NCBI GenBank assembly: GCA_001792535.1
Contig: MGGS01000002.1
Span: 7,155 to 71,154 of the forward strand
Source of the DNA: Candidatus Woesebacteria bacterium RIFCSPHIGHO2_02_FULL_42_20
GTDB taxonomy: Bacteria > Patescibacteriota > Microgenomatia > UBA8517
Direction: 5' to 3'
DNA: 64,000 nucleotides
Shown: positions 4,725 through 58,261 of the stretch, in pieces
Layout of the letters: each line of letters opens with the position of its first letter
Numbering within the stretch: the stretch's first letter is position 1
Made by a program: the position numbers and the translations under genes
The notes under the pieces: model-generated
What the model saw: only the letters and a program-made list of their open reading frames with translations
What the model was told of the DNA's origin: nothing
Databases searched by the model: none

Positions 4725-5392
4725 TGTTGGGTGTCATCTCCTTCGTAGACGACTCTTCCTTTAATAGACAAAGATATCAAGTTGCCCTCAGCAGTTTCCC
4801 GTAAGCTAAAGTTTGTTTCGTCTAACCAGATAGGGCGTCTTAAACCCTCGACATTTTGAAGGAAGGTTACTAAGTCAGAGTAACTACCGTTGGCGGACAT
4901 GGTTACAGAAAAGCCTTTTGATCCGGCAGGAAGTGGGGCGAGTTCTTCGTTTCTGGATTTTTGTACCGACCCCTCGCTTCCCTTGAGAACTGTGCCTTCT
5001 ATTTTCAGATTTGTTAGCGTGACAGAATATTTGCTGGAAATCGAACTAATTTGCCGTATATAGTCTTCGACCTGTGCATTTTCGGGAACGGCAGTAGACA
5101 AAAGCAAAATCCGGTCCACTTCTTGGTTATAGAGGTCCTGGGCGAGACCTAAGTCCTCAGTTTTTTGTTTTAATGTAGTTAAAATAGTTTGTTTGGAATC
5201 TATGTCCTTTAGTATTTGTGTAATAGTAACAATCGTCGGCTTTAACGCGAAAATAACAAAGAATGTAACAGTTGCAAGAGACATGATTATCTCCAAAAAC
5301 GCTTTTACGTCGTCTCTGTTTTTGTAAACAGCAAAAAGATTCAAAAAGTACCGCTGATACCTTAAATAGTCTTTTCTCCAGCCCACTGCCAT
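4721..5392 (-). CDS. PilO-like type IV pilus inner-membrane assembly protein (tentative)
   Basis: 223 aa; short cytoplasmic N-terminus, one TM, coiled-coil segment, C-terminal ferredoxin-like region; directly follows the PilN-like gene with adjacent stop/start. Confidence 0.45.
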   Translation of the reverse strand: MAVGWRKDYLRYQRYFLNLFAVYKNRDDVKAFLEIIMSLATVTFFVIFALKPTIVTITQILKDIDSKQTILTTLKQKTEDLGLAQDLYNQEVDRILLLSTAVPENAQVEDYIRQISSISSKYSVTLTNLKIEGTVLKGSEGSVQKSRNEELAPLPAGSKGFSVTMSANGSYSDLVTFLQNVEGLRRPIWLDETNFSLRETAEGNLISLSIKGRVVYEGDDTQQ

Positions 5393-5983
5393 TTAGATAG
5401 TTCCTCCTTCATTTAATATTGAACTTATCGAAAATTCAATAAACGGCGACTCGTTTTTAGATGATACTTGGGTAAGTTTTACATCCTTTAGTTTGCCAGC
5501 CGAGTTTAAATTTGAAATTAGCTGGGCAATAGACTGCTCTGTAAAACTTGACCCTTGGATTCGCACTTCACTGTAGGTGAGGGTGATACTTTTAAGAAAA
5601 ACATCAGACGGAAGGTAGGGTGTGATATAGTTTTTTACTAAGTCAAATTGCGCAGGATTTGCGCTAAATTGCGAAAATACCCCGAGTTTTTTCTGTGTTT
5701 GTCTGAAGACTTTTTCAAAATTGCTATACGACTCCACAATTTCTTTTTGATTTTCAACCTCGTCAGTCAAGTCGCTAGAACGGATATCTAGCCAGAATCT
5801 GGATAGAAAGGCAATTATTACTACCATTTCCGTCAAGATGACAATCAATCTGAAAGTAGAGAGCACCCAGGCTAAGACACGGCCTGTGGTTGTCGTAGCA
5901 AATTGTTCTTGGGGCAGCAGATTTATTTCTTTAGTTTTTTTCTTTTGAGCAGCCATAATAGTATCCAATTTCCAATATAGCAC
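5393..5983 (-). CDS. PilN-like type IV pilus assembly protein
   Basis: 196 aa; N-terminal KEINLLPQEQ motif typical of the PilN cytoplasmic peptide, then one TM and a periplasmic-type domain; start may be GTG 5983 or internal ATG ~5956. Confidence 0.55.
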   Translation of the reverse strand: MLYWKLDTIMAAQKKKTKEINLLPQEQFATTTTGRVLAWVLSTFRLIVILTEMVVIIAFLSRFWLDIRSSDLTDEVENQKEIVESYSNFEKVFRQTQKKLGVFSQFSANPAQFDLVKNYITPYLPSDVFLKSITLTYSEVRIQGSSFTEQSIAQLISNLNSAGKLKDVKLTQVSSKNESPFIEFSISSILNEGGTI

Positions 5984-12128: not shown

Positions 12129-12770
12129 ATGGACTATTCAAAAATAGGAAATTCTAAAGATTTTTTGAATTTTCTTAAATATCAATACACTCCAAAACCG
12201 GGAAAAGTTCAGATACTTAAATTACCAGAGAGACATTATTTAACTTTCGACGGCAAAGGTGAATCGAAAGCCCCGCCCTTTCAAGAAGCAATTCAATGTC
12301 TCTATGCAACTGCTTACACCTTAAAAATGGGTATGAAGTTCGGAAAATTGACAAAACCTGACGGCTATTTTGATTATAAAGTTCCGGCTCTGGAAGGACT
12401 ATGGTGGTTTAAAAAAGGGAAGTTTGTCATGGGTGCAAACCTCAAAAACATCTTTTGGAAACTTATCATAATGACTCCGGCTTTTATTACCAAAGACCTA
12501 GTTGATGCTGCCAAGAAACAGGCCAAAGAAAAAAAGCAAGAGTTACCGATAGAAAAAGTTAATTTTGAAACCTTTGACGCCAAAAAGGTTATTCAGACTT
12601 TACACATCGGTCCTTACAATAAAGAAGAGGCTGCCGTCAATTTACTTCATGAGTTCGCAAAAGAAAAAGGCTTTAAAATTGCAGGACGTCACCACGAAAT
12701 TTATATGTCCGATCCTCACAAGACTCCTGAATCAAAATTAAAAACGATAATCAGATATCAAGCAATTTAA
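12129..12770 (+). CDS. GyrI-like small-molecule-binding (AraC effector-domain-like) protein
   Basis: 213 aa; C-terminal pattern HIGPYNKEEAAVNLLHEFAKEKGFKIAGRHHEIYMSDPHKTPESKLKTII matches GyrI-like fold consensus (EIYlsDP...T pE.LkT). Confidence 0.6.
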   Translation: MDYSKIGNSKDFLNFLKYQYTPKPGKVQILKLPERHYLTFDGKGESKAPPFQEAIQCLYATAYTLKMGMKFGKLTKPDGYFDYKVPALEGLWWFKKGKFVMGANLKNIFWKLIIMTPAFITKDLVDAAKKQAKEKKQELPIEKVNFETFDAKKVIQTLHIGPYNKEEAAVNLLHEFAKEKGFKIAGRHHEIYMSDPHKTPESKLKTIIRYQAI

Positions 12771-12876
12771 TTTCCATTTTTTGAGGGTAATTACTATTAA
12801 TGGCATTTTTTGAAATAATGTAAGAAATAAAGATCATATTGATTTAATCCTAACTCAGGATAATCTAACTTTTGAT

Positions 12877-13713
12877 TTACACTACTCTCCAGTTTATTAT
12901 GCCTTTAATTGATCTTAACCAATCTTCAAGTTTACCCAAATCCGGTTTGTCAAAACTTTTGTTGTCGTTAATAAATTTAACTAATTTGTCATTTACTTTA
13001 CCTTCACGGTTGATTAGCAATTCCCCGGAATCTAATTGAGATAGCAAAGCCTCTGGTAAATCAAAAGTATCAGCAACATCTACTAAAGAAAATTTTCCTG
13101 TTTTAGGGTCATAAAAAATATTATCTGTGGAAAGAACTCCATAATTTAAGTCGGGTAAAAAATGATCTCTATTAAGTAAGTCAATGAGATCTTTTGCAAG
13201 AAGCTTCAGGTTGTTAATCGAACTAGGATTGTTATCCGAAAGTTGACTTAGAATTGACAATTCGTATTCCTGTTCTCCTAAAGCACTATTTGAATTTGGA
13301 AAAACTCTGCGAATTAGATCACCATCTGCTTCTTTTTGTATAAAAAAATGTTTATATGATCCATTATCTAAACTCACCGTACACACTTGCGTTGGAGGAA
13401 TATTAAAATGTTTGTACTGTTTCATATGTTGAAAACGATCCGAAATATATAAACCATATTCTTTAGTCGACTTTTCAGGAGGACGTTGATACCACGGTGC
13501 TGTTTCGGTAGGAAGAATTTTAAATCTGGGGTTATCTGGGTGAGATGTTGTCAGTTCTTGGGTATCTACAACCACCTTAACAAAATAGTTTCCTTCCAAT
13601 TTGGCATCATGTATTTTATATGTTTCACTGCGAGTTCCTGTATTAAATACCGGTTCAAGTTGACGAATATTTTGTATGATTATGTCGCCATACATTTGAA
13701 CGTGAGGTTCCAA
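12877..13713 (-). CDS. hypothetical protein (possible kinase-like fold), in an AT-rich segment
   Basis: 278-aa ORF; weak resemblance to APH/kinase C-lobe (FSLVDVADTFDLPEA); flanked by AT-rich intergenic DNA. Confidence 0.45.
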   Translation of the reverse strand: MEPHVQMYGDIIIQNIRQLEPVFNTGTRSETYKIHDAKLEGNYFVKVVVDTQELTTSHPDNPRFKILPTETAPWYQRPPEKSTKEYGLYISDRFQHMKQYKHFNIPPTQVCTVSLDNGSYKHFFIQKEADGDLIRRVFPNSNSALGEQEYELSILSQLSDNNPSSINNLKLLAKDLIDLLNRDHFLPDLNYGVLSTDNIFYDPKTGKFSLVDVADTFDLPEALLSQLDSGELLINREGKVNDKLVKFINDNKSFDKPDLGKLEDWLRSIKGIINWRVV

Positions 13714-13816
13714 AGTCGTTTAATCTGACAAGTCATCAATTGTCATAATCTAAACAATAAGTAATCGTTAATAGTTACAGATTTTTCCTTAAGTTAAATT
13801 GAAACATTAACAATTC

Positions 13817-16552
13817 TCACCCCATTTGCGGATAGTGGCACTTCTTCCATTTTTTGCCACTGCCGCACCAACAGGGGTTGTTGCGGCCAAGTTTGTGTTT
13901 AGTGATTGGTGGTTGGTGACTGGTGACAGGCGCTACTCTCTCAAATGCTGGTTCTCCGGCGGCTGCGGTGACGTCTGCTCCTCCAGCCAAACCCATCATG
14001 TCGCTTCGGTCGACATTTTCCCTTGCCTGCTCAAGCGGAATTTCCTGCTGGGGAGCGGCGACAAAAAGTCTGAAAACCCGCCTGGATAGTTCGTCATCAA
14101 TTCGGCCTAGCAACCCTTCGAAAAGTTCGTAAGCTTCATTTTTAAACTCTACCAACGGATCACGCTGACCATAAGCACGAAGATTAATACCTTCTCTAAG
14201 GTCATCTATCCTGTCTATATGCTCTATCCACATGTGGTCAATCGCACCCAAGTAAGCATATTTCTCTATTTGTCTCATGGCGGTATCGCCAACCTGTTTT
14301 TCGCGGGCTTCGTGGACGTCGTCAATCACCTTGAGCATAAACTCTCTGATCTGGTTGTGACTGCCTTGTTTTTGAATATTACTTTCAATTCTTTTTCGCG
14401 ACTCGTCGTCAAACGGCACAATTTCGGTGAGCATGATAACGGCTTTTTCATGATCAAAATTTCCACCCGTGTCACTTGAGGTTGCCGAAAGTATTTTCTC
14501 AACCTGGACACTAAGTTTATCCATGACTTCCTCGCCTACATTGTTTGTCTCTAATATTTTCCTGCGGAGTTTATAAATAATGTCCCGTTGCTGATTGGCA
14601 ACATCATCAAATTCTACCAAGCGCTTTCTGATGTCAAAGTGAAAACCTTCCACCTTTACCTGTGCCTGTTCAATGGCGCGACTGATTAGCCGATTTTCAA
14701 TCGGTTGATTTTCAGGGAGGTTTAGTCTATCCATGATCCCTTTGATCGCTTCACCACCGAATATTCTCATCAGGTCGTCCTCAAGAGACAGGTAAAAAAG
14801 TGACGATCCCGGGTCACCCTGTCGGCCGGAGCGGCCCCGAAGCTGATTATCAATTCTTCTCGATTCGTGCCGCTCGGTGCCAATTACATGCAGACCTCCT
14901 GCATTAATTACTTTCTCATGATCACTTTTCCACTTTTTATAGTCGCCAGTCGCCAGATAATCTTTTTGGTCAATTCCGCTTTCGCGCACAGGCATTGCTC
15001 CTCCCAAAACAATATCGACACCGCGCCCCGCCATATTTGTAGCTACAGTTACTGCCCCCGGATTGCCTGCCTGGGCAATTATTGACGCCTCCCTCTCGTG
15101 ATTTTTGGCATTAAGCATATTATGGGGAATCTTTTTCTTTTTTAAGTAACTGGCAATAATTTCATTTTTTTCAATCGAAGTTGTTCCGACCAACACGGGC
15201 TGACCTTCGTTGTGACGTTTCTGAATTTCTGCTACGATGGCTCCGTACTTCGCTCGAAGTGTTTTGTAAATAGTATCCTGCAAGTCAGAACGGACCATGG
15301 GTTTATTCGTCGGCAAAACAACTACATCCAGGTTGTAAATCTTTTTGAATTCATCTGCCTCTGTTGCTGCCGTTCCCGTCATCCCGGAAAGGTGGTCATA
15401 CATGCGAAAGTAATTCTGAAAAGAAATCGTCGCCAGGGTTTTACTCTCTCTTTGTATCGCAACCTCTTCTTTGGCCTCAACTGCCTGGTGGAGCCCGTCG
15501 CTCCAGCGGCGGCCAAACATCAATCTTCCTGTAAATTCGTCAACAATAGTAACTTGACCTTCTTTAACGATATAGTCTTTATCTCTAATATAGAGTGACC
15601 TTGCCCGAAGCGCGTTTTCAATATGATGAATCGACTCATAATCTTTTTCGTACAAATTATCCACGCCCAGCAACTTCTCCACCTTTGTTATGCCGTGCTC
15701 GGTCAAAGTCGCCGATCTGGATTTCTCGTCCACTTCATAATCGGTGTCTGAATTAAGCCCCTTTACAATATTGGCGAACTTAAAATATTTGTCCGTAGGA
15801 TCCGTATCCGGAGCCGAAATAATCAAAGGTGTTCTCGCCTCGTCAATTAATACCGAGTCCACTTCGTCGACAATTGCAAAATAGTGACTGCGTTGGACCA
15901 TTTGGTCAATCGAGGTCACCATGTTATCGCGAAGATAATCAAACCCAAATTCATTGTTTGTCCCATAGGTAACGTCTGCAGAGTACACTTGCTTCCTTTC
16001 GGCCGGCACTAGGTGTGCAAGCCGCTCATCGCCATGGCCCGGATCGTTGAACTTAGGATCGTATAGATAAGATTTGTTTTCCTGAATAATGACACCTGTG
16101 GTCAGCCCCAGGAGGTCAAATATCGGCGCATTCCACCCGGCGCCGATTCTTGCCAAGTAGTCGTTGACCGTCACCAAATGAACCCCTTTTCCGGTCAGGG
16201 CCCGTAGGTATAATGCGGGGACAGCCGATAATGTTTTCCCCTCACCGGTTTTCTGCTCGGCGACTTTCCCTTCGAACAAAGCAATTGAGGCCATTAGCTG
16301 AACGTCAAAAGGTCGTTGACCTAGAGTTCTTACCGCGGCCTCGCGGACTAAAGCAAAGCTATGGGCAAGAAGTGACTCAAGAGGTTCCCCGTCCTCGATT
16401 CTCTTTTTGAGCTCCTGGGTTTTCCGGGGAAAGTCCTTAACTCTAAATTTTTTATATTCAGGCTCGAGACCGTTGATTTGCTCAACAAGTTTGGAGAGCC
16501 TGCTTATTTCTTTCTGGTTTGTGTCCAGCAGCTTCGAAAAGAATTTGAGCAT
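13817..16552 (-). CDS. secA: preprotein translocase ATPase SecA
   Basis: 911 aa; DEAD-like motor signatures, LMASIALFEGKVAEQKTGEGKTL; C-terminal zinc-binding CWCGSGKKWKKCH; TGA stop. Confidence 0.95.
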   Translation of the reverse strand: MLKFFSKLLDTNQKEISRLSKLVEQINGLEPEYKKFRVKDFPRKTQELKKRIEDGEPLESLLAHSFALVREAAVRTLGQRPFDVQLMASIALFEGKVAEQKTGEGKTLSAVPALYLRALTGKGVHLVTVNDYLARIGAGWNAPIFDLLGLTTGVIIQENKSYLYDPKFNDPGHGDERLAHLVPAERKQVYSADVTYGTNNEFGFDYLRDNMVTSIDQMVQRSHYFAIVDEVDSVLIDEARTPLIISAPDTDPTDKYFKFANIVKGLNSDTDYEVDEKSRSATLTEHGITKVEKLLGVDNLYEKDYESIHHIENALRARSLYIRDKDYIVKEGQVTIVDEFTGRLMFGRRWSDGLHQAVEAKEEVAIQRESKTLATISFQNYFRMYDHLSGMTGTAATEADEFKKIYNLDVVVLPTNKPMVRSDLQDTIYKTLRAKYGAIVAEIQKRHNEGQPVLVGTTSIEKNEIIASYLKKKKIPHNMLNAKNHEREASIIAQAGNPGAVTVATNMAGRGVDIVLGGAMPVRESGIDQKDYLATGDYKKWKSDHEKVINAGGLHVIGTERHESRRIDNQLRGRSGRQGDPGSSLFYLSLEDDLMRIFGGEAIKGIMDRLNLPENQPIENRLISRAIEQAQVKVEGFHFDIRKRLVEFDDVANQQRDIIYKLRRKILETNNVGEEVMDKLSVQVEKILSATSSDTGGNFDHEKAVIMLTEIVPFDDESRKRIESNIQKQGSHNQIREFMLKVIDDVHEAREKQVGDTAMRQIEKYAYLGAIDHMWIEHIDRIDDLREGINLRAYGQRDPLVEFKNEAYELFEGLLGRIDDELSRRVFRLFVAAPQQEIPLEQARENVDRSDMMGLAGGADVTAAAGEPAFERVAPVTSHQPPITKHKLGRNNPCWCGSGKKWKKCHYPQMG

Positions 16553-43661: not shown

Positions 43662-43940
43662 ATGAAAATAGTAACGATATCTTCAAAAAGACAAATGACT
43701 ATTCCAAGGAGCTATTTGGAAGTGCTGGGTCTGGAGTCTTATGGAAAGGCAATTTTGGAAAAAGAAAAGGACAAAGTGGTAATTAGGCCCATGAAAGGGT
43801 CGGTAGTAGATCAGGTTGCCGGGAGCCTTCGAGGATACGTTAGACCATCTTTACTGGGTAAAAGCGTAGAAGAAATAAACAAGGAGGCTGGGGAGGCTTA
43901 TACAAAATACCTGGCGAAAAAATTTAAGCTTATCAAATGA
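43662..43940 (+). CDS. AbrB/MazE (SpoVT-AbrB) family antitoxin
   Basis: 92 aa; MKIVTISSKRQMTIPRSYLEVLGLE swapped-hairpin signature. Confidence 0.75.
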   Translation: MKIVTISSKRQMTIPRSYLEVLGLESYGKAILEKEKDKVVIRPMKGSVVDQVAGSLRGYVRPSLLGKSVEEINKEAGEAYTKYLAKKFKLIK

Positions 43941-44323
43941 TAACTTGCGTATTTGATACAAATGTACTGCTTCGTCTTTTTCTGAGAGACATTGAAAGTC
44001 AGTTTTTAGAAACGACTAGAGTATTAAAAGAGATTGAAGATGAAAAATCTACAGGAAAACTTTCAGCATTGGTTGTTGCAGAAACAATTTGGACATTTGA
44101 AAGTGTTTATAAATTAAACAGAAAGATAGTTATTGAGAAACTCCTTAGTTTAGTTGCATTAAAAAATATTAAGATCATTGAAGTAAAAAAAGACGTTCTT
44201 GTGGAAATCCTAAAAAGAATGATTGGAAACAAATTAGATTTTGTGGATGTTTATCTTTCCAAGATTGCCACCAAAAAAGAGATTTTTTCTTTTGACCGTG
44301 ACTTCAAAAAACTGTACAGATAA
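43937..44323 (+). CDS. vapC: PIN-domain toxin VapC
   Basis: 128 aa; N-terminal CVFDTNVLL; ATGA overlap with antitoxin gene. Confidence 0.8.
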   Translation: MITCVFDTNVLLRLFLRDIESQFLETTRVLKEIEDEKSTGKLSALVVAETIWTFESVYKLNRKIVIEKLLSLVALKNIKIIEVKKDVLVEILKRMIGNKLDFVDVYLSKIATKKEIFSFDRDFKKLYR

Positions 44324-47935: not shown

Positions 47936-48307
47936 TTATTTGTACTTGGAATGAGTTTTTAGAAGCTTCTTGTCAAAGCTTTTAAGCTGAGATTTTGAGT
48001 TAAGGACCTCGGCTAGTAATAACGAGTCGTAAAAACTTACCCTTTCATTTTTATAAATATTGAGAGACAAAGGCACGAAAGATGAAGTTGAAACGTTGGG
48101 CTGCTTTATCAAGGAAATTAAAACATTACACAACTCTTTTTTGTTTGCCTTGTAGTGTGTCTCAAGAATATAAACTACTTCAGCCAGTACAATATTGGCA
48201 ATATAAATTTTGTCATTTTCAATAATTTTCTTTGCGGTTTCTGCTTGGACTTTTATATCTTTGGTTAGAAAGCGGACGAGGTAGTTTGTGTCCAGGTATG
48301 TAGCCAT
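47936..48307 (-). CDS. PIN-domain toxin (VapC-like)
   Basis: 123 aa; MATYLDTNYLVRFL N-terminal acidic-residue strand; C-terminal SFYDSLLLAEV. Confidence 0.75.
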   Translation of the reverse strand: MATYLDTNYLVRFLTKDIKVQAETAKKIIENDKIYIANIVLAEVVYILETHYKANKKELCNVLISLIKQPNVSTSSFVPLSLNIYKNERVSFYDSLLLAEVLNSKSQLKSFDKKLLKTHSKYK

Positions 48308-48658: not shown

Positions 48659-50497
48659 TTGTATAATAGCTTCACGGTGACGAGTAACGAAGTTAGGAAA
48701 AAATATATTGATTTTTTTGTTAAAAGGGGACATGTGGAAATTCCGCCGGCTCCGCTTGTTTTAGAAAATGATCCAACTACTCTTTTTACTTCAAGCGGTA
48801 TGCAGCCACTTGTTCCCTATTTGATGGGTGAGCCTCATCCAAAGGGCAAGCGATTAGTTAATTCCCAGCCGTCTGTTCGAGCCCATGGAAAGAATGACGA
48901 TATGTTGGAGGTTGGTGACAACAGACATTTAACTGTTTTTGAAATGCTTGGGAATTGGAGTTTGGGTGATTACTTTAAGGAGGAACAGCTCCCTTGGTTT
49001 TTGGAATATCTGACAAAACAACTTGGCCTCTCTAGGGCTAGTCTTTGGGTATCGATTTTTGAAGGTTATAAAAATATTCCAAAAGATATCGTTTCATTTG
49101 AGATATGGAAAAAGTTGGGTATAGCGGAGAATAGAATTTTATATTACGACGTTAAGAAGAATTGGTGGAGCCGCTCTGGAACTCCCGACGAAATGCCAAC
49201 AAATGAAATCGGCGGCCCGACATCTGAAGTGTTTTTTGACTTTGGTGAGAATTTGGGAATTCATGAAAAATCTCCTTTTAAGGTTGATAAATGCCATCCA
49301 AATTGCGATTGTGGCAGATTTTTGGAAATTGGAAACTCGGTTTTCATGCAATATATCAAAACGAAAGACGGCTCGCTAAAGGAGTTGCCTCAGAAGAACG
49401 TTGACTTCGGCGGCGGGCTGGAAAGACAGGCGGCTGCTGTAAATAATGACCCAGATACTTTTAAAACAGATTTATTTTTTAGCCTGATATCAATCATTGC
49501 TAAAAATGTTGGTGAGGATTACGACAAGTCAGGAAACAAGAATGCTTATCGAATAATCGCTGACCATCTTAAGGCTTCAACTTTTCTAGCAGTTAACGGC
49601 GTGGTTCCATCCAACAAGGAGCATGGCTATATACTTCGCCGATTGCTAAGAAGAGCGATAGTTAAGACACATTTGCTAAATAGCGAGATTGATCCCGTAC
49701 CAATGTTTTGGCAACTTGCACAAGAGACTACTGAGATTTATGACGACGTTTACATGGATTCAAAGAAAGATGGGAAAATTGTAGGCGAAATATTTAAAGA
49801 TGAAGTTGAAAAATTCAATAGGAGTCTTGATCGAGGGCTAAAGATAATTAACACTAAAGAAAAAATTGGCGCGAAGGAAGCCTTTGATTTATATCAGTCA
49901 CAAGGCTTTCCTCTGGAACTAATTGAAGAACTTATGGCTGAGAAAGGCCAAAAAATAGACAAAGAGGAATTTAAAAAAGAATTTGAAAAACACCAAGAAA
50001 AGTCCAGAACTGCCGGTCGTGGCATGTTCAAAGGCGGGCTTGGGGGACATTCGGAAACGGAAATTAAATATCACACTGCGACTCATTTATTACATCAGGC
50101 CTTGCGGGATGTCTTGGGTGATCATGTTCACCAAGCAGGAAGCAACATTAATTCCGACCGCTTGAGATTTGATTTCACTCACCCAACAAAGCTTACAGAA
50201 GAAGAAATCAAAAAAGTAGAGAACGAAATTAATTCAAAAGTCGACGAGGATTTGAAAGTGATTAGAGAGGAAATGCCAAAAGAGGAAGCCCTCAAAAAAG
50301 GCGCTTTGGCATTTTTCCCCGAGCGCTATCCCGACATGACATCCGTTTATACAATCGGGGAAGTCGATAAGCCTTACAGCATGGAACTTTGCGGCGGGTC
50401 GCATGTAACTTCGACTGGCGTAATCGGGCGTGTTAGAATAAAAAAGCAGGAATCCGTAAGCTCCGGCGTTAGGCGGATTTATGCGCTTTTAGAATAA
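48659..50497 (+). CDS. alaS: alanyl-tRNA synthetase (compact form with editing-domain zinc motifs, no C-Ala domain)
   Basis: FEMLGNWSLGDYFK class II motif region; HTATHLLHQAL and CGGSHV editing-site motifs; likely start GTG 48677 (TATAAT 48662-48667 9 nt upstream). Confidence 0.88.
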   Translation: MYNSFTVTSNEVRKKYIDFFVKRGHVEIPPAPLVLENDPTTLFTSSGMQPLVPYLMGEPHPKGKRLVNSQPSVRAHGKNDDMLEVGDNRHLTVFEMLGNWSLGDYFKEEQLPWFLEYLTKQLGLSRASLWVSIFEGYKNIPKDIVSFEIWKKLGIAENRILYYDVKKNWWSRSGTPDEMPTNEIGGPTSEVFFDFGENLGIHEKSPFKVDKCHPNCDCGRFLEIGNSVFMQYIKTKDGSLKELPQKNVDFGGGLERQAAAVNNDPDTFKTDLFFSLISIIAKNVGEDYDKSGNKNAYRIIADHLKASTFLAVNGVVPSNKEHGYILRRLLRRAIVKTHLLNSEIDPVPMFWQLAQETTEIYDDVYMDSKKDGKIVGEIFKDEVEKFNRSLDRGLKIINTKEKIGAKEAFDLYQSQGFPLELIEELMAEKGQKIDKEEFKKEFEKHQEKSRTAGRGMFKGGLGGHSETEIKYHTATHLLHQALRDVLGDHVHQAGSNINSDRLRFDFTHPTKLTEEEIKKVENEINSKVDEDLKVIREEMPKEEALKKGALAFFPERYPDMTSVYTIGEVDKPYSMELCGGSHVTSTGVIGRVRIKKQESVSSGVRRIYALLE

Positions 50498-50506
50498 AAT
50501 CTGTCC

Positions 50507-52642
50507 ATGAGTTTGATTAAATTTGGCTTAAAAGAAGCCGACAAAGAGCATTACTGGACCTTAATAATTGAAGAAGGCTGGGTCCAGAGTGCCATTTGGA
50601 AAATTGACGAAAAAGACGAGGAGGCACAGGTTGTTTCATTTAGCTCTCCTGTTCGCTTCGAAAGCGATGATGACTTGGTTGAAACCGTTGATACTTCTCT
50701 TTCGGCTACAATTCAAAGCTTACCCAAGGAATTCCCTGAGCCGTCAAAAACTGTTTTTGGGGTACCTTCCTCATGGGTGAACAATGGTCAAATAGTGCCG
50801 GAGCACTTGGAGAAAATAAGGCACATCTGCTCAAAGCTTTCCTTAGCACCTACCGGATTCGTCGTACTGTCTGAAGCTATTGCGTTTTTAACTAAGACAC
50901 AAGAAGGTTCTCCGCTAAGTGCCGTGGTAATTGGCCTGACAGCTACAAGCCTTGAACTAAGCATTTTTAAGCTTGGCAAGTTGATTGGCAATACCAAGGT
51001 GGCTCGAAGTGTATCTTTATTTGACGACGCGGTTGAAGGTGTTTCGCGCTTTACTGACGGGATGCCTTTGCCTTCGCGGTTTTTAGTTTATGACGGTAAA
51101 GAGGGCGAAATGGATGAGGCCAAAGAAGCGCTTATTTCTGCTGACTGGTCAGCTAATACTTCTGATAAGGTTAAATTTATTCACTCTCCCAAAGTTGAAA
51201 CAGTGAGTGTTAATGATAAGATTCTGGCAGTTTCGTTGGCTGGTTCTTCTGAGATCGGAAAAGTGAAAAGTGTCATAATGACGGGCATAAAAAGCGAAGA
51301 TGCGGAGGAAAAGGTTGAAGTAACCGATGTGGTAAGTAATATCCGTGAAAACGAAATTACAGCAGGCGACTTGGGATTTGTAAATGATGAAGATGTTGTT
51401 ATCGAGGAAAAAATTCCCGTCTCTGAAACCAAAGTCCATAAAGTAACACCGAAATTTAAAAATCCGTTCGCTTTTCCGAAGTTTAAGGTGAGCTCGGGCG
51501 GATCGTCCGGTAAAAAAATGCTAATCGTCGGGTTTTTACTGTTTTCTGTGATTATTATAGGTCTTACTTTGGCTTGGTGGTTTTTACCTAAGGCAACAGT
51601 CACCATTTTTGTCTCCCCCAAAACCTTGCAGGAAAAAGACACCATCTCAATAGATATAAATGCAACGGGGGCCAATCTGGAGGCGAAAGTTATTCCCGGC
51701 AGAATAGAAAAAGTCAAGGTAGATGGTAGTAAAACAAAGTCGGTAACAGGTACCAAAGTTGTTGGTGATAAAGCTAAAGGAACCGTCAAAGTCAGAAACG
51801 GCACGCCGACCGACGTCAGTTTTGCCGCCGGTACCGTTATGGAAGGGCCGAATGGGTTAAAGTTCGGCCTAGATGAGTCGGTGTCGGTTTCAAGCGCAAT
51901 TTCGCCGACTTTACCGGGGACAGAAAATGTTTCGGTTACTGCCGAAGCCATTGGTTCGGAATATAACTTGGCTAAGGACGAAACGTTTAAAATGAGTAAT
52001 TATCCGAAAAGTGAGATTGACGCGGTTGGTGAGGCCGATTTTTCTGGAGGTAGTAGCCGTGAAATTTCGGCTGTTTCGCAAGATGATGTTGAGCAGCTTG
52101 AGAAGAGTTTAACGGATGAACTTGAAGATCAGGCCGAAGAAAAAATGATGGCTACGCTTGCTGCGGACGAAAGTTTTATCGAAGGCACTGTGACTTCGAG
52201 TGTTGCCGAGAGGGAGTTTGATCATAAAGTCGGGGACGAGGCTGCAAGTGTCGAACTGTCTTTGTCATTGGAAGTAAGCGCTTTAGTCGTGGACAGCATC
52301 GACTTAGATGGCCTTGCATCAAAGCTTTTGGAAGACCAGACCCCTCAAGGATTTTTGTTCAGAAATGAACAAGTGGATAAGACTTTTAAATTAGAAGGTC
52401 AGAGCAATGGTGTTTATAAGGTTACGATTAGCTTTGTGGCCAATCTTTTGCCCAATCTTAAAGTAGACGAAATTGCGAGTAAAATTTCGGGTAAGTATAC
52501 GGACGTGGCAAGCAATTATTTGCAAACGATACCAGGATTTAAAAAAGCCCAAATCAGTATTAACCCGAGGTTCCCTGGTAAGCTTGGTACTTTACCAAAT
52601 GTAAAAAATAATATATCAATAGAGATCTCTGCGAGTAAGTAA
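50507..52642 (+). CDS. membrane protein: N-terminal actin-like (PilM/FtsA-like) cytoplasmic domain, one TM, ~370-aa extracellular domain
   Basis: 711 aa; TVFGVPSSWVNNGQIVPEHLEKIRHICSKLSLAPTGFVVLSEAIAFL resembles actin/Hsp70-fold connect motif; TM MLIVGFLLFSVIIIGLTLAWWF at ~aa 335. Confidence 0.45.
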   Translation: MSLIKFGLKEADKEHYWTLIIEEGWVQSAIWKIDEKDEEAQVVSFSSPVRFESDDDLVETVDTSLSATIQSLPKEFPEPSKTVFGVPSSWVNNGQIVPEHLEKIRHICSKLSLAPTGFVVLSEAIAFLTKTQEGSPLSAVVIGLTATSLELSIFKLGKLIGNTKVARSVSLFDDAVEGVSRFTDGMPLPSRFLVYDGKEGEMDEAKEALISADWSANTSDKVKFIHSPKVETVSVNDKILAVSLAGSSEIGKVKSVIMTGIKSEDAEEKVEVTDVVSNIRENEITAGDLGFVNDEDVVIEEKIPVSETKVHKVTPKFKNPFAFPKFKVSSGGSSGKKMLIVGFLLFSVIIIGLTLAWWFLPKATVTIFVSPKTLQEKDTISIDINATGANLEAKVIPGRIEKVKVDGSKTKSVTGTKVVGDKAKGTVKVRNGTPTDVSFAAGTVMEGPNGLKFGLDESVSVSSAISPTLPGTENVSVTAEAIGSEYNLAKDETFKMSNYPKSEIDAVGEADFSGGSSREISAVSQDDVEQLEKSLTDELEDQAEEKMMATLAADESFIEGTVTSSVAEREFDHKVGDEAASVELSLSLEVSALVVDSIDLDGLASKLLEDQTPQGFLFRNEQVDKTFKLEGQSNGVYKVTISFVANLLPNLKVDEIASKISGKYTDVASNYLQTIPGFKKAQISINPRFPGKLGTLPNVKNNISIEISASK

Positions 52643-52644
52643 AT

Positions 52645-53316
52645 ATGCGAAGAACTCTGTCAAAAATTGCATCGGTTATTTTGGGTTTGGTGGGGATTTT
52701 TATGCTTGCCTCTACTCTCTTTCCGATTTTTTCGTACGAAATCTCAACACGCGATACCTTTTCCAATTATTTGTCTCCTGTTCCCGAAGGCGATATGGTA
52801 ATATTTGAAGCGTCGGGGGATGATCTGACTTTGGCGAGCAACTGGTTTGAAGGTGGGGCTGCGAGAGAAGATTTTGCCAATGTCGGTAACATTGACTATT
52901 ATACACTTTCTATCCCAAAGTTTGGAATTGAAAACGCGACTGTGTCCGTCGGCGGGGAAGACTTAGCCGAAAGCTTAATCCAGTATCCGGGTACTGCTCT
53001 TCCCGGGAAAATGGGGAATACTGTAATTTTTGGCCACTCGATTCTGCCTCAATTTTTTAACCCCAAAAGCTATCTATCAATTTTCTCCAGGCTGCCCGAG
53101 CTTAAAAAAAATGACGAGATAGAGGTTTATTATGATGGCATAGCTTATCTTTATAGAGTTGTAGATTTGGTGGAAGTAGATCCGGATAATTTAAATGTGT
53201 TGGAACAGCGATGGGGAGATGCATTTTTGAGTCTTGTCACTTGTGTCCCCCCGGGAGACCCCAGAAAACCCAGAAGACTAGTTGTTAGGGCAAAAGTAGT
53301 TCCTCCAGAAAAATGA
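52645..53316 (+). CDS. sortase (transpeptidase)
   Basis: 223 aa; N-terminal TM anchor; TLSIPKFGI, VIFGHS (catalytic His), SLVTCVPPG (TLxTC catalytic Cys), RLVVRA (conserved Arg). Confidence 0.75.
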   Translation: MRRTLSKIASVILGLVGIFMLASTLFPIFSYEISTRDTFSNYLSPVPEGDMVIFEASGDDLTLASNWFEGGAAREDFANVGNIDYYTLSIPKFGIENATVSVGGEDLAESLIQYPGTALPGKMGNTVIFGHSILPQFFNPKSYLSIFSRLPELKKNDEIEVYYDGIAYLYRVVDLVEVDPDNLNVLEQRWGDAFLSLVTCVPPGDPRKPRRLVVRAKVVPPEK

Positions 53317-53690
53317 GGTTTATTGGAATAGACTATGGCGCAAGCAAAATTGGGCTAGCCTCTTCGGAGACTAAAATCGCTGAGCCGTTAACTGTGCTGC
53401 GAGGAAATCGCCTTTTTGAAAGAACTGTCGATTTGATTAAAAAATATTCTCCGGAAATGGTTGTCGTAGGTATATCAGAAAATGAGTCGGGCAAGCAGTC
53501 CAGGGAATTTGCAAGACGGCTTTCCAAAACTACCGGTATTAAGACCGTTTTGGAAGACGAAACTCTTAGCACCTACGAGGCGCAAAATCTGGCGAGACTG
53601 CAAAACATAGGTAGACGTCGTCGGAGTAAGTTGGAGGATGCATTCGCTGCAACTATTGTGTTACAATCTTATCTAGACAAAAATGTTTAA
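53313..53690 (+). CDS. ruvX: Holliday junction resolvase-like RuvX/YqgF
   Basis: 125 aa; MRFIGIDYGASKIGLA RNase H-fold start. Confidence 0.85.
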   Translation: MRFIGIDYGASKIGLASSETKIAEPLTVLRGNRLFERTVDLIKKYSPEMVVVGISENESGKQSREFARRLSKTTGIKTVLEDETLSTYEAQNLARLQNIGRRRRSKLEDAFAATIVLQSYLDKNV

Positions 53691-53883
53691 AAATGTAATT
53701 GCTCCCATTCAAGCTTGGCTCTTGTCGCAAGGCAAGTGTGTTGGCTGTTCAACACTTTTGGCTAAGGGTAAAAAAGAGAAGCATCCCAATGGTGAAAAAG
53801 TTACTTGTGTAAAATGCGGTAGGATCTATATTTACGACTCTAAAACCAAAAAATACCGCCGCGCGCTTCTTGACGAAGTTTAG
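53683..53883 (+). CDS. small zinc-ribbon protein (CxxC...CxxC)
   Basis: 66 aa; CVGC ... CVKC; overlaps neighbours by a few nt. Confidence 0.35.
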   Translation: MFKNVIAPIQAWLLSQGKCVGCSTLLAKGKKEKHPNGEKVTCVKCGRIYIYDSKTKKYRRALLDEV

Positions 53884-54949: not shown

Positions 54950-57900
54950 ATGAGCCGGCAGTCAAGAGTAAACTTTGGCAAAGCTGAAAAGAATTTACCC
55001 AAACTGGATTTGTTGTTGGTCCAAAAGCAGTCATGGGACTGGTTTTTGACGGAAGGTATTGAAAAAGAAATTGCGGAAGTTTCACCAATAAATGACTTTA
55101 CCGGAAAAAACTGGCGGTTAATTCTCTCTAATCACTCATTAGGCGCGTCTATAATTACGCCGCGGCTAGCCCGAGAAAAAGGACTCACATTTTCTTCTCC
55201 CTTCAAAGTTACTGCAACTCTCATTAATAAGCACACCGAAAAAGAAGTTTCCCAGGAAGTATTTTTAGGAGACATCCCCCAAATGACAAAATGGGGAACT
55301 TTTATTGTAAACGGCATCGAGCGGGCTGTAATTAATCAGATTGTCAGATCTCCCGGAGCATATTTCAGCGGGAACTTAGATGCTTTGTCAGGACGGATGC
55401 TTTATATATCCGAAATTAGACCTCTTCATGGTTCATGGCTGGAGTTTGAAGTAGGTAAATCCGATGTGATTGTTGCCAGAATAGATAGGCGGAAAAGGGT
55501 CCCGGTAACTGTTTTTTTGAGGGCCATGGGGTTATCCAGCGATGAAGAAATTAAAAAAACATTTGCTCAAGCAGATATTGACAAAAATCACCAGTATATC
55601 CAGAAAACTTTGGAAAAAGATTCTACAAAGTCTTCCGAAGAAGCTTTGATCGAAATCTATCGCAAAATGAGGCCGGGTGAGCCTTCGGTACTCGAGAACG
55701 CTCAAGAACTTTTTGAAGGACTGTTTTTAGATCCCCGAAGGTATGACTTGGGCAAAGTAGGTAGATACAAAATTAACAAGAAACTTGGGCTTAATGTCGA
55801 AAACGAAAAGAAAAATTGGGTTTTGACAAAAAACGACGTAGTTGGCGCATTAAACTATCTGATCGGACTGCAAAATAATCAGGGCAAAGTCGACGATATT
55901 GACCACCTTGCAAACCGAAGGCTTCGAAGGGTTGGAGAGCTCGTAGCGACTCATGCGTTCAGGGTTGGTTTTCTTAGACTTGAAAGGTCAATTAAAGAAA
56001 AAATGAGCCTCGTTTCAACCGCCGACAGACCGCTTCCTTCGCAATTAATTAATGCAAGGCCACTGATTGCTGCGATTAATGAATTCTTCAGGTCAAACCA
56101 ACTATCGACTATTCTGGACGACACCAATCCTCTGAGTGAAATAGATAACTTAAGGCGTGTTTCCGTACTTGGGCCGGGCGGGATAAATCGCGAGCGGGCG
56201 TCGTTTTCGATTCGGGACGTTAATTCTTCGCAGTATGGCAGGATTGACCCAGTGCGCTCTCCCGAAGGTCCTAACATTGGCTTAGTTACGTACTTGGCTC
56301 TTTATGCTCGCGTCAATGAATATGGATTTGTCGAGGCTCCTTACAGAAAGGTAGTAAAGGTAAAAAAAGAGGGCAGGGAGTTTTCTAAAATTACGGAGGA
56401 GATTATGTATTTGCAAGCCGATGATGAACAGGAAAGCAGAATTACCCATTGCGGTGTAAACGTCGACAAAGACGGACTAATAACAGATGACCGTGTGGCC
56501 TTTCGTTATAACGGACTTTTTACCGAAGGACCGAGTAATCTGGTCGATTATATAGATGTAACTCCACGACAGGTTTTTGGAACTTCCGCTTCACTTATTC
56601 CCTTTCTTGCCCACGATGAAGGCAACAGGGCTTTGATGGGGTCGAATATGCAATGTCAAGCCGTGCCTCTCATAACTCCGAGTGCCCCGGTTATCGGTAC
56701 CGGAATGGAAAGTTTTGTCGCGGACTCCATGGGTAAGGTGGTCCAGGTGGCTTATCCGGGAAAAGTGGTTTATGCGGATGCGGAAAGGGTGGAAGTAGCA
56801 CTGGACAAGAAAGTGAATGGCCAACCGGACGATTATGACATCGAAATAACGGACGCTGGCAAGAAGGCCGTTTACCACATCACAAAATTTAGGCGGACAT
56901 CTCATTCTACTTGTTATAACCAGAAGGTAAAAGTAAATGTTGGTGATAGGGTAAAAACAGGAGATTTATTGGCGGATGGCCCGGCAGTCGATGGCGGGGA
57001 GCTCTCGTTAGGGCAAAACCTGGTCATAGCCTACGCCTCGTTTGAGGGTTATGGATTTGAGGACGCGGTTTTGGTTTCCAGTAGGCTTGTAAAGGATGAT
57101 TTACTAACATCAATCCATATCGAGGAATATTCAGCTGATGTGGTAGAGACAAAACTTGGACCGGAGGAGCTCACCAGAGACATCCCTAATGTTGCCGAAG
57201 CCGAACTTGCCAACCTCGCCGAAGATGGAATAATTGTCGTCGGCGCCGAAGTCGGCCCCAATGACATTTTGGTAGGCAAAATTGCCCCGAAGGGAGAGAC
57301 CGAGTTAACCAGCGAAGAAAGATTGCTTCGTGCTATTTTCGGTGAAAAGGCGAGGGAGGTAAGGGATACTTCACTTCGCGTACCTCACGGCGAGAAAGGG
57401 ATGGTTGTGGATGTCTCGGTTTTAGACAAGGACAAAGGTGACGAACTTGGTCCGGGAGTAATCAAATCGGTGATTGTAAAAGTTGCCCAGATGAGAAAAG
57501 TCACAGTAGGGGATAAGCTTGCAGGAAGGCATGGTAACAAAGGGGTTATCGCAAAAATAATGCCGGTTTCGGATATGCCCTATCTGCCCGATGGTACTCC
57601 TGTTGATATTGTCATTTCACCGTTGTCGGTTCTTGCCCGTATGAACTTGGGGCAGTTATTGGAGGCTCATCTGGGGTTGGCGCTTACTAAAACAGGTCAG
57701 AAGGCAAGCTTGCCGGTTTTTGATAGGGTTTCCGAGGATATTTTGGTTAACGAACTTAAAAAAGCGAATTTGTCGGTCAGTGGTAAAACCAAATTGGTTG
57801 ATGGCCGGACAGGGGAGAGTTTTAAAGAGGATACGGTCGTGGGTGTAGGCTACATTATGAAGCTCACCCACATGGTCGAAGACAAGACACATGCTCGCTC

Positions 57901-58261
57901 GACTGGTCCGTACTCGCTTGTTACCCAACAACCCTTGGGAGGTAAAGCTCAAATGGGAGGCCAGAGGCTCGGGGAGATGGAGGTTTGGGCTTTGGAGGCA
58001 CACCGTGCTACCTATACACTCCAGGAGATGTTGACAATAAAATCCGATGATATTGTGGGCAGGGCCAGGGCTTTTGAAGCAATTGTCAAGGGTGACCCCA
58101 TTCCCGAGGCTAATGTACCAGAGAGTTTTAAAGTCTTGGTCCGCGAACTTAACTCCTTAGGTATGGCACTGGAAACAATTGGGGCGGTAATTGCTGATGA
58201 AGCCCAAAAAGAGGAAAACGAAGCGGTACAAAGTAAGGAAGTTGTGGAAAAAAAATTGTAA
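54950..58261 (+). CDS. rpoB: DNA-directed RNA polymerase beta subunit
   Basis: 1103 aa with RpoB signatures throughout. Confidence 0.97.
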   Translation: MSRQSRVNFGKAEKNLPKLDLLLVQKQSWDWFLTEGIEKEIAEVSPINDFTGKNWRLILSNHSLGASIITPRLAREKGLTFSSPFKVTATLINKHTEKEVSQEVFLGDIPQMTKWGTFIVNGIERAVINQIVRSPGAYFSGNLDALSGRMLYISEIRPLHGSWLEFEVGKSDVIVARIDRRKRVPVTVFLRAMGLSSDEEIKKTFAQADIDKNHQYIQKTLEKDSTKSSEEALIEIYRKMRPGEPSVLENAQELFEGLFLDPRRYDLGKVGRYKINKKLGLNVENEKKNWVLTKNDVVGALNYLIGLQNNQGKVDDIDHLANRRLRRVGELVATHAFRVGFLRLERSIKEKMSLVSTADRPLPSQLINARPLIAAINEFFRSNQLSTILDDTNPLSEIDNLRRVSVLGPGGINRERASFSIRDVNSSQYGRIDPVRSPEGPNIGLVTYLALYARVNEYGFVEAPYRKVVKVKKEGREFSKITEEIMYLQADDEQESRITHCGVNVDKDGLITDDRVAFRYNGLFTEGPSNLVDYIDVTPRQVFGTSASLIPFLAHDEGNRALMGSNMQCQAVPLITPSAPVIGTGMESFVADSMGKVVQVAYPGKVVYADAERVEVALDKKVNGQPDDYDIEITDAGKKAVYHITKFRRTSHSTCYNQKVKVNVGDRVKTGDLLADGPAVDGGELSLGQNLVIAYASFEGYGFEDAVLVSSRLVKDDLLTSIHIEEYSADVVETKLGPEELTRDIPNVAEAELANLAEDGIIVVGAEVGPNDILVGKIAPKGETELTSEERLLRAIFGEKAREVRDTSLRVPHGEKGMVVDVSVLDKDKGDELGPGVIKSVIVKVAQMRKVTVGDKLAGRHGNKGVIAKIMPVSDMPYLPDGTPVDIVISPLSVLARMNLGQLLEAHLGLALTKTGQKASLPVFDRVSEDILVNELKKANLSVSGKTKLVDGRTGESFKEDTVVGVGYIMKLTHMVEDKTHARSTGPYSLVTQQPLGGKAQMGGQRLGEMEVWALEAHRATYTLQEMLTIKSDDIVGRARAFEAIVKGDPIPEANVPESFKVLVRELNSLGMALETIGAVIADEAQKEENEAVQSKEVVEKKL

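Follow-up and report, generated by a model that had tools for sequence, protein, structure and literature searches.

What does a large membrane protein do when its gene is wedged between those of a tRNA synthetase and a sortase? The question arises from a stretch of 64,000 nucleotides from a Woesebacteria genome (the whole of which is referred to here as the window), in which the sortase gene is preceded by a gene for a 711-aa protein, here called X. The original prediction proposed that X has an actin-fold-like N-terminal domain, that it may supply the PilM missing from a PilN/PilO operon in the same window, and that the sortase may serve a surface protein encoded in that distant operon. The Microgenomates, which are uncultured, make up a very large share of the candidate phyla radiation (CPR), and, to our knowledge, almost nothing is known of how they build their cell surface.

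X (positions 50507-52642) belongs to a run of four genes on the forward strand. The run opens with alaS (48659-50497), encoding a short, 612-aa alanyl-tRNA synthetase (Pfam tRNA-synt_2c, 3.8e-115, plus tRNA_SAD), continues with X and with the gene for the 223-aa sortase, srt (52645-53316), and is closed by ruvX (YqgF; 53313-53690; Pfam RuvX, 7.5e-26). The alaS stop and the X start are 9 nt apart, the 3' end of srt overlaps ruvX by 4 nt, and the only terminator-like hairpin in the run is found downstream of ruvX (53738-53755). X stops with TAA at 52640-52642, and srt begins with the ATG at 52645; the tight adjacency first described thus holds, but the spacer measures 2 nt and not 3 nt. Both ORFs, X with its 711 aa and the sortase downstream, are present in the ORF list where they had been placed. 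Judged from their sequences, they are genuine genes and not chance ORFs, because homologues of both run from hundreds to thousands. In neither the window nor the related loci that were examined was a second sortase found.

The sortase consists of a hydrophobic N-terminal segment at aa 8-30 (52666-52734), matching the membrane anchor expected there, and a catalytic domain at aa 87-220 (52903-53304; Pfam PF04203). It scores 81.4 bits against PF04203, well over the cutoff of 26.6 (E = 6e-23), so the HMM scan agrees with the first identification, and 45.5 bits against TIGR01076 (cutoff 39.35). In alignments with class C sortases of solved structure in the PDB, the catalytic positions are taken by His131 (in VIFGHS), Cys200 (in LVTCVP) and Arg211 (the leading R of RLVVRA), and all three are invariant among 32 family members; the triad had been read as intact, and these comparisons bear this out. 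Because the Pfam threshold is passed and the H/C/R triad is invariant, the protein is predicted to be a catalytically competent transpeptidase.

Assignment to classes A-F was tested with the class-specific NCBIfam models (NF0337xx) and their own cutoffs. The scores fall far below the cutoffs for class C (42.8 bits; cutoff 160), class E (39.3 bits; cutoff 160), class D (38.6 bits; cutoff 165) and class F (23 bits; cutoff 166), and by sequence the protein belongs to a CPR clade outside all curated classes A-F. With the class C, D and E sortases of Firmicutes and Actinobacteria it has in common the Pfam sortase fold, the His-Cys-Arg triad and the N-terminal membrane anchor. However, it scores only 39-43 bits where the cutoffs of these classes are 160-165, and it possesses a conserved pre-catalytic segment, NWF.GGA..EDF, in which W67 is invariant. 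The lid motif of class C is not obvious in it, and its candidate recognition motif is LP[EQ]AG in place of LPXTG. The sortase family has been reported to be near-ubiquitous in Microgenomates (PMC6744442).

X is divided by the membrane into two dissimilar halves. In the AlphaFold2 model (mean pLDDT 81.9 for the full-length protein, 88 for the ectodomain modelled separately), aa 10-258 (50534-51280) form a cytoplasmic minimal ASKHA (actin-fold) domain composed of lobes 1A and 2A only. Structure comparison identifies FtsA and PilM as the closest solved structures, and the actin-fold-like character ascribed to this domain is thereby upheld. In lobe 1, at most 10 residues lead from alpha1 to beta4 in the model, which leaves no space for a 1C subdomain. 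The phosphate-binding loops are degenerate (IIEEGW, VVIGLTAT and LAGSSE). The phosphate-1 equivalent, canonically DxG, reads I-E22-E-G24-W and retains an acidic residue and the Gly; the phosphate-2 equivalent, canonically DxGGG, reads V-I-G143-L-T-A-T, the Asp having been lost and a single Gly retained; and the adenosine-motif equivalent, canonically GG, reads L-A-G246-S-S-E, likewise with a single Gly.

A cytoplasmic linker of about 75 residues (aa 262-333; 51290-51505), disordered, acidic and variable in length (pLDDT <50), tethers this domain to a single transmembrane helix at aa 335-359 (51509-51583; SGKKMLIVGFLLFSVIIIGLTLAWWF), which has Lys-Lys on its N-side and is oriented N-in, C-out. 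On the far side, aa 362-520 (51590-52066) form a beta-rich module resembling the beta-barrel of baseplate wedge J/gp47 proteins, and aa 525-711 (52079-52639) an alpha/beta region with a long helix and two beta-alpha-beta units. The ectodomain comprises about 350 aa in the model, and the layout of one transmembrane segment with a large extracellular domain is as originally described. As modelled, the architecture is unusual in that a stripped-down actin fold of the FtsA/PilM type lies inside the cell and a phage-baseplate-like domain outside it. The match to Pfam Baseplate_J (PF04865) is above threshold and the fold agrees with it, but only about 120-140 residues align with Baseplate J, gp47 and T4 gp6 wedge proteins.

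The family to which X belongs is large, with 635+ close homologues and 2,332 clusters (50% identity) at E<=1e-30, and numerous residues are invariant across it. Its N-terminal domain evolves about as slowly as the catalytic core of AlaRS (mean distances 0.65 and 0.61). Mean column identity is 0.30 in the linker against 0.70 in the ASKHA domain, and the linker contains a conserved short linear motif, GDLGFVNDEDV (51365-51397; family consensus [ED][DE]LGFVxGxDV). Within it, G290 and F291 show no variation among 53 sequences, in which D296 is >90% conserved; a regular expression detects the motif in 98 of 138 full-length representatives at 50% identity, including members about 30% identical. Database entries are named 'hypothetical', 'Baseplate protein J-like domain-containing' or, in some cases, 'baseplate J/gp47 family'. 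The actin-fold half has no Pfam model, and the family profile has no match among PDB sequences at E<=1. No description of the family was found in the searchable literature under sortase with CPR, baseplate J with CPR, or sortase with PilM and Microgenomates.

X is set in a conserved block with division and cell-wall genes, which runs in the order ftsK, HTH_25 (rodZ-like), alaS, X, srt, ruvX, mltG and rpoB in about 75 species-level loci. The same order is found in representatives at 29-37% identity. The sortase gene comes immediately after X in all but two of these loci. In one outlier (L042) the two are separated by a gene for a 1,440-aa cytoplasmic-looking protein, in the other (L084) by one for a short-chain dehydrogenase; these identities rule out the inserted genes as substrates. 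The whole block, of about 15 kb, is syntenic across the clade. Because of this synteny, the adjacency of X and the sortase is inseparable from inherited gene order, and since tight spacing is common to alaS and ruvX as well, lying side by side says little in itself about whether the two function together. A mirror-tree test gave partial correlations of 0.24 between the X ectodomain and the sortase, 0.02 between the X N-terminal domain and the sortase, 0.22 between the sortase and MltG and 0.38 between the X ectodomain and the HTH_25 protein; there is no signal specific to X and the sortase, and the values, being weak and confounded by phylogeny, are treated as uninformative.

The reading that we favour, tentatively, is that X is a bitopic envelope scaffold present throughout the lineage (Microgenomates/Woesebacteria), neither an enzyme nor a PilM, which may organise envelope construction near the putatively co-expressed sortase. 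By analogy with FtsA, PilM-PilN and GspL, X would link an assembly outside the cytoplasm to a cytoplasmic partner, which might be bound by the actin-fold domain, by the linker motif or by both. Baseplate J modules form rings in the baseplates of contractile tails, and it is only from this behaviour in phage tails that the X ectodomain is suggested to oligomerise on the outer side of the membrane. An assembly of this kind could organise envelope construction close to the sortase, for example by determining where the sortase anchors Pro/Thr-rich surface proteins, such as the LPEAG protein described below.

It is also possible, if somewhat doubtful, that X is a scaffold of the envelope or of cell division that has nothing to do with the sortase, such as an FtsA-like adaptor that is anchored in the membrane and serves the divisome or elongasome, and that it has its neighbours through the inherited block. 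The succession of actin fold, flexible linker and membrane anchor mirrors FtsA, ftsK, mltG and the gene for the RodZ-like HTH_25 protein are close by, and it is the entire block, not the X-sortase pair alone, that is conserved. Among the residual distance correlations, X shows its strongest with MltG (0.38) and the HTH_25 protein (0.33-0.38) and not with the sortase (0.02-0.24), although these too are weak and confounded by phylogeny. In FtsA, however, subdomains 1C and 2B serve contacts with FtsN and with itself and the binding of FtsZ, and X has neither of them. X is also held by a true transmembrane helix where FtsA uses an amphipathic one, bears a 350-aa ectodomain and has no FtsA or SHS2 Pfam match. 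The near-invariable succession of X and the sortase likewise speaks against a role apart from the sortase.

The suggestion that X is the missing PilM starts from the second locus. On the reverse strand, pilN (5393-5983; Pfam PilN, 2.3e-10) and pilO (4721-5392; Pfam PilO, 3.1e-5) form an operon (4721-5983) that has rpsT, and not pilM, upstream of it. The order S20, PilN, PilO, small transmembrane protein and fn3 protein is identical in three related loci (L089, L091 and L094), and pilM is missing from the operon both in this genome and in relatives whose PilN identity is as low as 30%, in agreement with the first reading of the locus. PilN retains the INLLP motif in its N-terminal stretch (KEINLLPQEQF), which implies a need for an actin-fold partner. 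X could in principle be this partner, its actin-fold domain binding the N-terminus of PilN and joining the pilus platform to the sortase locus.

We regard this as unlikely. X has no match to Pfam PilM_2 (PF11104) at E<=0.1, among 53 family members there is none with a match at E<=1 to the Pfam models for PilM_2, FtsA or GspL, and no other ORF in the window matches PilM models either. X can be aligned with PilM over only about 205-210 residues, against the 333-355 of PilM itself. In PilM (PDB 2YCH), subdomains 1C and 1A together form the channel for the N-terminal peptide of PilN, 1C contributing half of it; X has no 1C and therefore lacks that half. X furthermore has a transmembrane helix of its own, and it lies about 45 kb from pilN, fixed between alaS and the sortase gene in every homologue examined, with no pilus genes adjoining. 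Taken together, these observations speak against the idea that X supplies PilM.

The resemblance to GspL or to a PilM-PilN pair is one of overall layout, from cytoplasm through membrane to periplasm. X has neither a sequence match to PilM_2 or GspL nor a 1C-like subdomain, its outer domain is baseplate-J-like where those of PilN, PilO and GspL have a ferredoxin-like fold, and in the loci examined it never occurs beside genes for pilus or secretion ATPases. In another Microgenomates genome, pilM is reported to be part of the main type IV pilus locus, the gene list of which names neither pilN nor pilO (PMC7143001). This arrangement is a further point against X as PilM, and because of it a canonical PilM is likely to be encoded elsewhere in the source genome.

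A candidate substrate of the sortase comes from this second locus as well. A gene on the reverse strand (1635-2105), 48 kb from X, encodes a 156-aa, Pro/Thr-rich surface protein with the C-terminus ...PELPEAG followed by a hydrophobic segment. A scan of the ORFs confirmed that this is the only one in the window with a sortase-motif-like C-terminus and a transmembrane segment. The LPEAG motif is preceded by a Pro/Thr-rich stalk and followed by a 23-residue hydrophobic segment; there is no basic tail, and Ala stands in place of Thr. The protein has no match to the LPXTG-anchor NCBIfam models at E<=1. One orthologue (in L089) ends in ...PELPQAG and a transmembrane segment. In about 1.2 Mb of related sequence, four ORFs combine [LI][PE]x[AS]G with a C-terminal transmembrane segment, and all four are in pilN-pilO operons, with the motif after a Pro/Thr-rich stalk. 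The motif is missing from the window's fn3 protein but present in more distant homologues of it. A search of 5.8 billion proteins with the last 48 residues of the LPEAG protein yielded three candidates that shared words with this tail, none of which scored, and the signal family is not delimited by it. Because of the Pro/Thr-rich stalk, the LPQAG of the one orthologue and the C-terminal transmembrane segment, it is plausible that the sortase acts on this candidate substrate; the want of a basic tail and of an LPXTG-anchor match speaks against it, and with Ala in place of Thr the candidate sorting signal is atypical.

The two loci can be combined into a single, more ambitious system. A cytoplasmic ring of minimal actin folds, regulated through the DLGFV peptide of the linker, would connect through the membrane with an extracellular ring of baseplate type. 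With this outer ring as a template, the sortase would polymerise the glycosylated, Pro/Thr-rich proteins encoded alongside PilN and PilO or anchor them in the wall. X and the sortase would then form an undescribed machine that defines the Microgenomates and mixes the principles of sortase pili, type IV platforms and phage baseplates, but we consider its existence improbable.

More improbable still is that X is itself a client of the neighbouring sortase, its ectodomain being cleaved by the enzyme or linked covalently to the wall or to other proteins. The two genes are putatively co-transcribed, the catalytic domain of the sortase and the ectodomain of X both lie on the outer side of the membrane, and Pro-containing stretches flank the ectodomain, WWFLPKATV just past the transmembrane helix and LPGKLGTLP near the C-terminus. 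However, the LPKAT-like stretch is variable at its first position (L/F/Y/I/V/G), and in the model it makes up the first beta-strand of the ectodomain, for which reasons it was rejected as a sortase motif. After the C-terminal stretch comes a structured strand and not a transmembrane segment with a basic tail. The topology of X is also the reverse of that of a sortase substrate, with the membrane anchor N-terminal to the motif.

That the region is a degraded prophage or the remnant of a contractile injection system, with X as its baseplate protein, is effectively refuted: the Baseplate_J match and the names of some database records point that way, but X has no PHROGs match at E<=0.01, neither the window nor related loci contain other genes for tails, baseplates or injection systems, X has alaS, ruvX, mltG and rpoB for neighbours, the position is conserved in every homologue examined, and a cytoplasmic actin fold with a transmembrane helix is ill-suited to a virion protein. 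Unlike the baseplate proteins of contractile tails, X is cellular, membrane-anchored and set in a housekeeping context.

A parallel to X and its sortase is SafA-SrtA of Actinobacteria, in which a membrane protein encoded beside a housekeeping sortase may modulate that sortase. SafA and X, compared here by description only, are both membrane proteins with an adjoining housekeeping sortase, but SafA is small and has neither an actin fold nor a large ectodomain. The Pam pilus operon of CPR was also considered as a counterpart of the X locus, and no link could be established; chaperone-like proteins are described for it, with no mention of a sortase role, of PilN/PilO or of an X-like protein (bioRxiv 10.64898/2026.03.03.709456).

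In its conservation and the fixity of its position, X ranks with housekeeping genes. Records that label it 'baseplate J/gp47 family protein' mislead, since it is no phage protein, and in inventories of CPR pili it should not be counted as a PilM. It is putatively co-transcribed with a housekeeping sortase, and its function is one that we infer. A role of X in organising surface assembly by the sortase would, if borne out, make it the first membrane partner known to be dedicated to a CPR sortase and offer a way into how CPR episymbionts build their attachment structures.

The 711-aa membrane protein X is encoded at 50507-52642 (+), directly ahead of a 223-aa sortase (52645-53316, +). In an AlphaFold2 model that draws on 53 homologues (mean pLDDT 81.9), residues 10-258 (the N-domain) form a confident fold of two beta-beta-beta-alpha-beta-alpha-beta-alpha lobes, and a Foldseek search of the PDB with this domain returns exclusively ASKHA (actin-fold superfamily) proteins, including Ppx/GppA (4e-8), PilM (2e-7), FtsA and ROK kinases. 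The actin-like N-terminal fold of the original prediction is thereby borne out. Because the modelled loops at the 1B, 1C and 2B subdomain insertion sites of actin-family proteins are 10 residues or shorter, the N-domain is predicted to be a bare 1A+2A core. Its phosphate-1 hairpin reads IIE22-E-G24-W, its phosphate-2 hairpin, VVIG143LTAT, lacks an Asp, and its adenosine motif is LAG246SSE; judging from these motifs, catalysis is unlikely. Residues 262-333 constitute a disordered, acidic linker of variable length, in which a conserved island, [ED][DE]LGFVxGxDV, includes invariant G290 and F291 (DLGFVxxxDV peptide, 51365-51397, +). A strict regular expression for this island matches 98 of 138 full-length 50%-identity representatives, some of them only about 30% identical to X; conservation of such a peptide within a disordered tether marks it as a putative docking motif. 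The transmembrane helix (residues 335-359) has a Lys-Lys pair on its N-terminal side and X is therefore oriented N-in, C-out, which, together with the separately modelled ectodomain (residues 360-711, pLDDT 88), agrees with the single helix and large extracellular domain first proposed.

The sortase scores 81 bits against Pfam PF04203 (cutoff 26.6) and exceeds the cutoff of the generic TIGR01076 model; it falls far under that of every class-specific NCBIfam model (C, D, E, F and GN). By phmmer, class C sortases are its best-aligned PDB entries, and the GH, TC and RLxVR residues line up. H131, C200 and R211 are invariant across 32 aligned family members, some just 37-43% identical, so the His/Cys/Arg triad is intact, as had been claimed; W67, in the conserved pre-catalytic segment, is likewise invariant. 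The N-terminus, MRRTLSK followed by 22 hydrophobic residues, is a signal-anchor. On sequence grounds, the protein is probably a competent enzyme from a CPR clade that the curated classes do not cover. A survey of CPR protein families includes a sortase family that is reported from 1,020 CPR genomes versus 12 non-CPR genomes and as near-ubiquitous in Microgenomates (PMC6744442).

The TAA stop codon of X (52640-52642) and the sortase ATG (52645) are separated by 2 nt, not the 3 nt originally given. Nine nucleotides lie between the end of alaS and the start of X, the sortase gene overlaps ruvX by 4 nt, and the sole terminator-like hairpin in the run is 3' of ruvX (53738-53755). Since the spacing is tight and the only hairpin follows ruvX, alaS, X, the sortase gene and ruvX look like a single transcription unit; a perfect sigma-70-like promoter occurs upstream of rpoB. 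Close spacing is not peculiar to the X-sortase pair. Identical copies of both proteins are recorded in Candidatus Woesebacteria bacterium RBG_16_41_13 and sibling Rifle MAGs (GCA_001792075.1), where the sortase is named "hypothetical" or "Sortase".

Several features of the surrounding genes were also observed. The alaS gene (48659-50497, +) encodes a short alanyl-tRNA synthetase of about 590-612 aa with catalytic and editing-associated SAD domains; the product ends after SAD, and the C-terminal (C-Ala-type) extension is apparently absent. Between ruvX and mltG, an ORF of about 66 aa (53683-53883, +), without a Pfam match, is annotated in the NCBI and JGI copies, as it is in three distant relatives (L005, L097 and L098). 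PIN-domain (VapC-like) toxin genes at 43937-44323 (+) and 47936-48307 (-) are located on either side of the ftsK/HTH_25 segment, the latter with a MazE/PrlF-like antitoxin upstream, as called in the JGI and NCBI copies. The rpoB gene is one 1,103-aa ORF in the window (54950-58261) and in the ENA and JGI copies; the NCBI copy (L003, 14444-17759) has genes of 992 aa and 77 aa, probably an assembly or consensus difference.

A profile search with X against 1.84 billion 50%-identity representatives yields 10,381 proteins at E<=1e-3, of which 2,332 reach E<=1e-30, and the best 150 matches are almost all full-length. In GTDB species genomes, 80 X loci were found, every one Woesebacteria-like. By tblastn, the order ftsK, HTH_25 (RodZ-like), alaS, X, sortase, ruvX, mltG, rpoB is present in essentially all loci, and the block is also kept in representatives just 29-37% identical to X and in three further look-ups. 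The sortase gene directly follows X save in L042 (4.4-kb insert) and L084 (0.8-kb insert). Neither insert is a surface protein: L084 has a short-chain dehydrogenase, and L042 (8204-12526), from one Woesebacteria species, has a cytoplasmic-looking 1,440-aa protein lacking a transmembrane segment or signal peptide. Among about 75 loci, this is the one place where a large insert separates the two genes. The X-sortase pair is ancient and stable. An alaS-ruvX-mltG cluster is widespread in other bacteria, in which light X and the sortase gene would look like an ancient insertion into it.

Adjacency alone says little about X and the sortase, because the whole block is stable too. Pairwise distances were compared for nine protein segments from 51 loci and the window, with rpoB, alaS and ftsK distances regressed out. 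The residual correlation of the sortase with the X ectodomain is 0.24, about the same as with mltG (0.22) or HTH_25 (0.22), and with the X N-domain it is 0.02. Higher values link the X ectodomain to HTH_25 (0.38) and the X N-domain to mltG (0.38). This test thus gives no signal specific to the X-sortase pair; at most, the envelope proteins drift together. By mean distance, the N-domain (0.65) is constrained like the AlaRS core (0.61) and more than the ectodomain (0.98). The main rival explanation, in which X serves as a scaffold for division or elongation and has no connection to the sortase encoded in the same apparent transcription unit, is unlikely, if far from negligible.

The original prediction also suggested that X may supply a missing PilM. 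The absence of pilM from the pilN-pilO operon (5983-4721, -) is real: the upstream gene is rpsT, and no window ORF matches a PilM model. A metagenome scan with PilN finds the window's order in relatives at 76%, 47% and 30% PilN identity, with murJ divergent, then S20, PilN, PilO, a small transmembrane protein and an fn3 protein; pilN-pilO directly follows rpsT (S20), without pilM, in L089 (7998-9230), L091 (2656-3859) and L094 (4940-6120). PilN retains an N-terminal INLLP motif and so should have an actin-fold partner. X is nevertheless a poor candidate. None of 53 family members matches PilM_2, FtsA, GspL or other ASKHA Pfam models at E<=1, and the family profile has no match among PDB sequences. 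In PDB 2YCH, 1A and 1C flank the channel that takes up the PilN peptide, and X has no 1C; it also has its own transmembrane helix, and its invariant position is never beside pilus genes. That X is the missing PilM is thus quite improbable. The gene order and the retained INLLP motif suggest that the PilN/PilO module has been separated from the principal pilus genes. For another Microgenomates genome, pilM is reported alongside pilB, pilT, pilC and pilD in the main pilus locus, whose gene list does not include pilN or pilO (PMC7143001). A divided arrangement of this kind, in which a canonical PilM is encoded elsewhere in the genome, is the simpler expectation.

A six-frame script detects just two real window ORFs with a C-terminal transmembrane segment. 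The only one with a sortase-like pentapeptide, as originally claimed, is the 156-aa Pro/Thr-rich surface protein at 1635-2105 (-), which ends in TPQPELPEAG and 23 hydrophobic residues; its tail has no basic end and matches no LPXTG-anchor model. That X is itself a client of the adjacent sortase is very improbable. The L089 orthologue of the LPEAG protein ends in SQPELPQAG and a transmembrane segment, and fn3 proteins of the operon in more distant relatives end in IPKSG or LEQSG followed by a transmembrane segment and a tail that contains Lys; no such motif occurs in the fn3 protein of the window. In about 1.2 Mb of related loci, [LIV][PAE]x[TAS]G with a C-terminal transmembrane segment occurs in four ORFs, all in pilN-pilO operons and after Pro/Thr-rich stalks, a tiny sample that would fit a sorting signal. 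A PMT-family protein O-mannosyltransferase-like gene (24-1631, +) adjoins the LPEAG protein, and L089 likewise has a PMT-family gene (12806-15304) beside its LPQAG protein (12280-12801), which suggests that the stalks are O-glycosylated. Two more surface proteins are encoded within the operon (2107-4415, -): a 348-aa fn3/CarboxypepD_reg protein that has a transmembrane segment at its C-terminus and a GRKIKD tail, and a 420-aa protein whose N-terminus is disordered and which also contains a transmembrane segment, a CARDB-like domain and a Pro/Thr linker. The CPR "Pam" pilus operon similarly has FnIII proteins with C-terminal transmembrane helices, a likeness by description only (bioRxiv 10.64898/2026.03.03.709456).

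Pfam Baseplate_J matches the ectodomain in all 53 members of the X family, but marginally, and databases name X "hypothetical protein" or "Baseplate protein J-like domain-containing protein"; a PHROGs search with X gives no match, and a phage remnant is extremely improbable. The searched literature contains no description of the X family and no link of "baseplate J" proteins to CPR biology, and "baseplate" has no match in the supplementary tables of the CPR protein-family survey (PMC6744442). A minimal actin fold joined to a motif-bearing linker, a transmembrane helix and a baseplate-J-like ectodomain appears to be an undescribed architecture, with a logic that resembles known bitopic actin-fold scaffolds. 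The architecture, topology and conservation of X and its packing within the operon are established here, and the sortase is probably competent. Tentatively, X may be a transmembrane coupling scaffold. It would couple across the membrane in the manner of FtsA, PilM-PilN or GspL, with its actin-fold core and linker peptide binding a cytoplasmic partner and its baseplate-wedge-like ectodomain self-associating on the cell exterior, and the sortase, produced from the same message, would act close by on stalked surface proteins.
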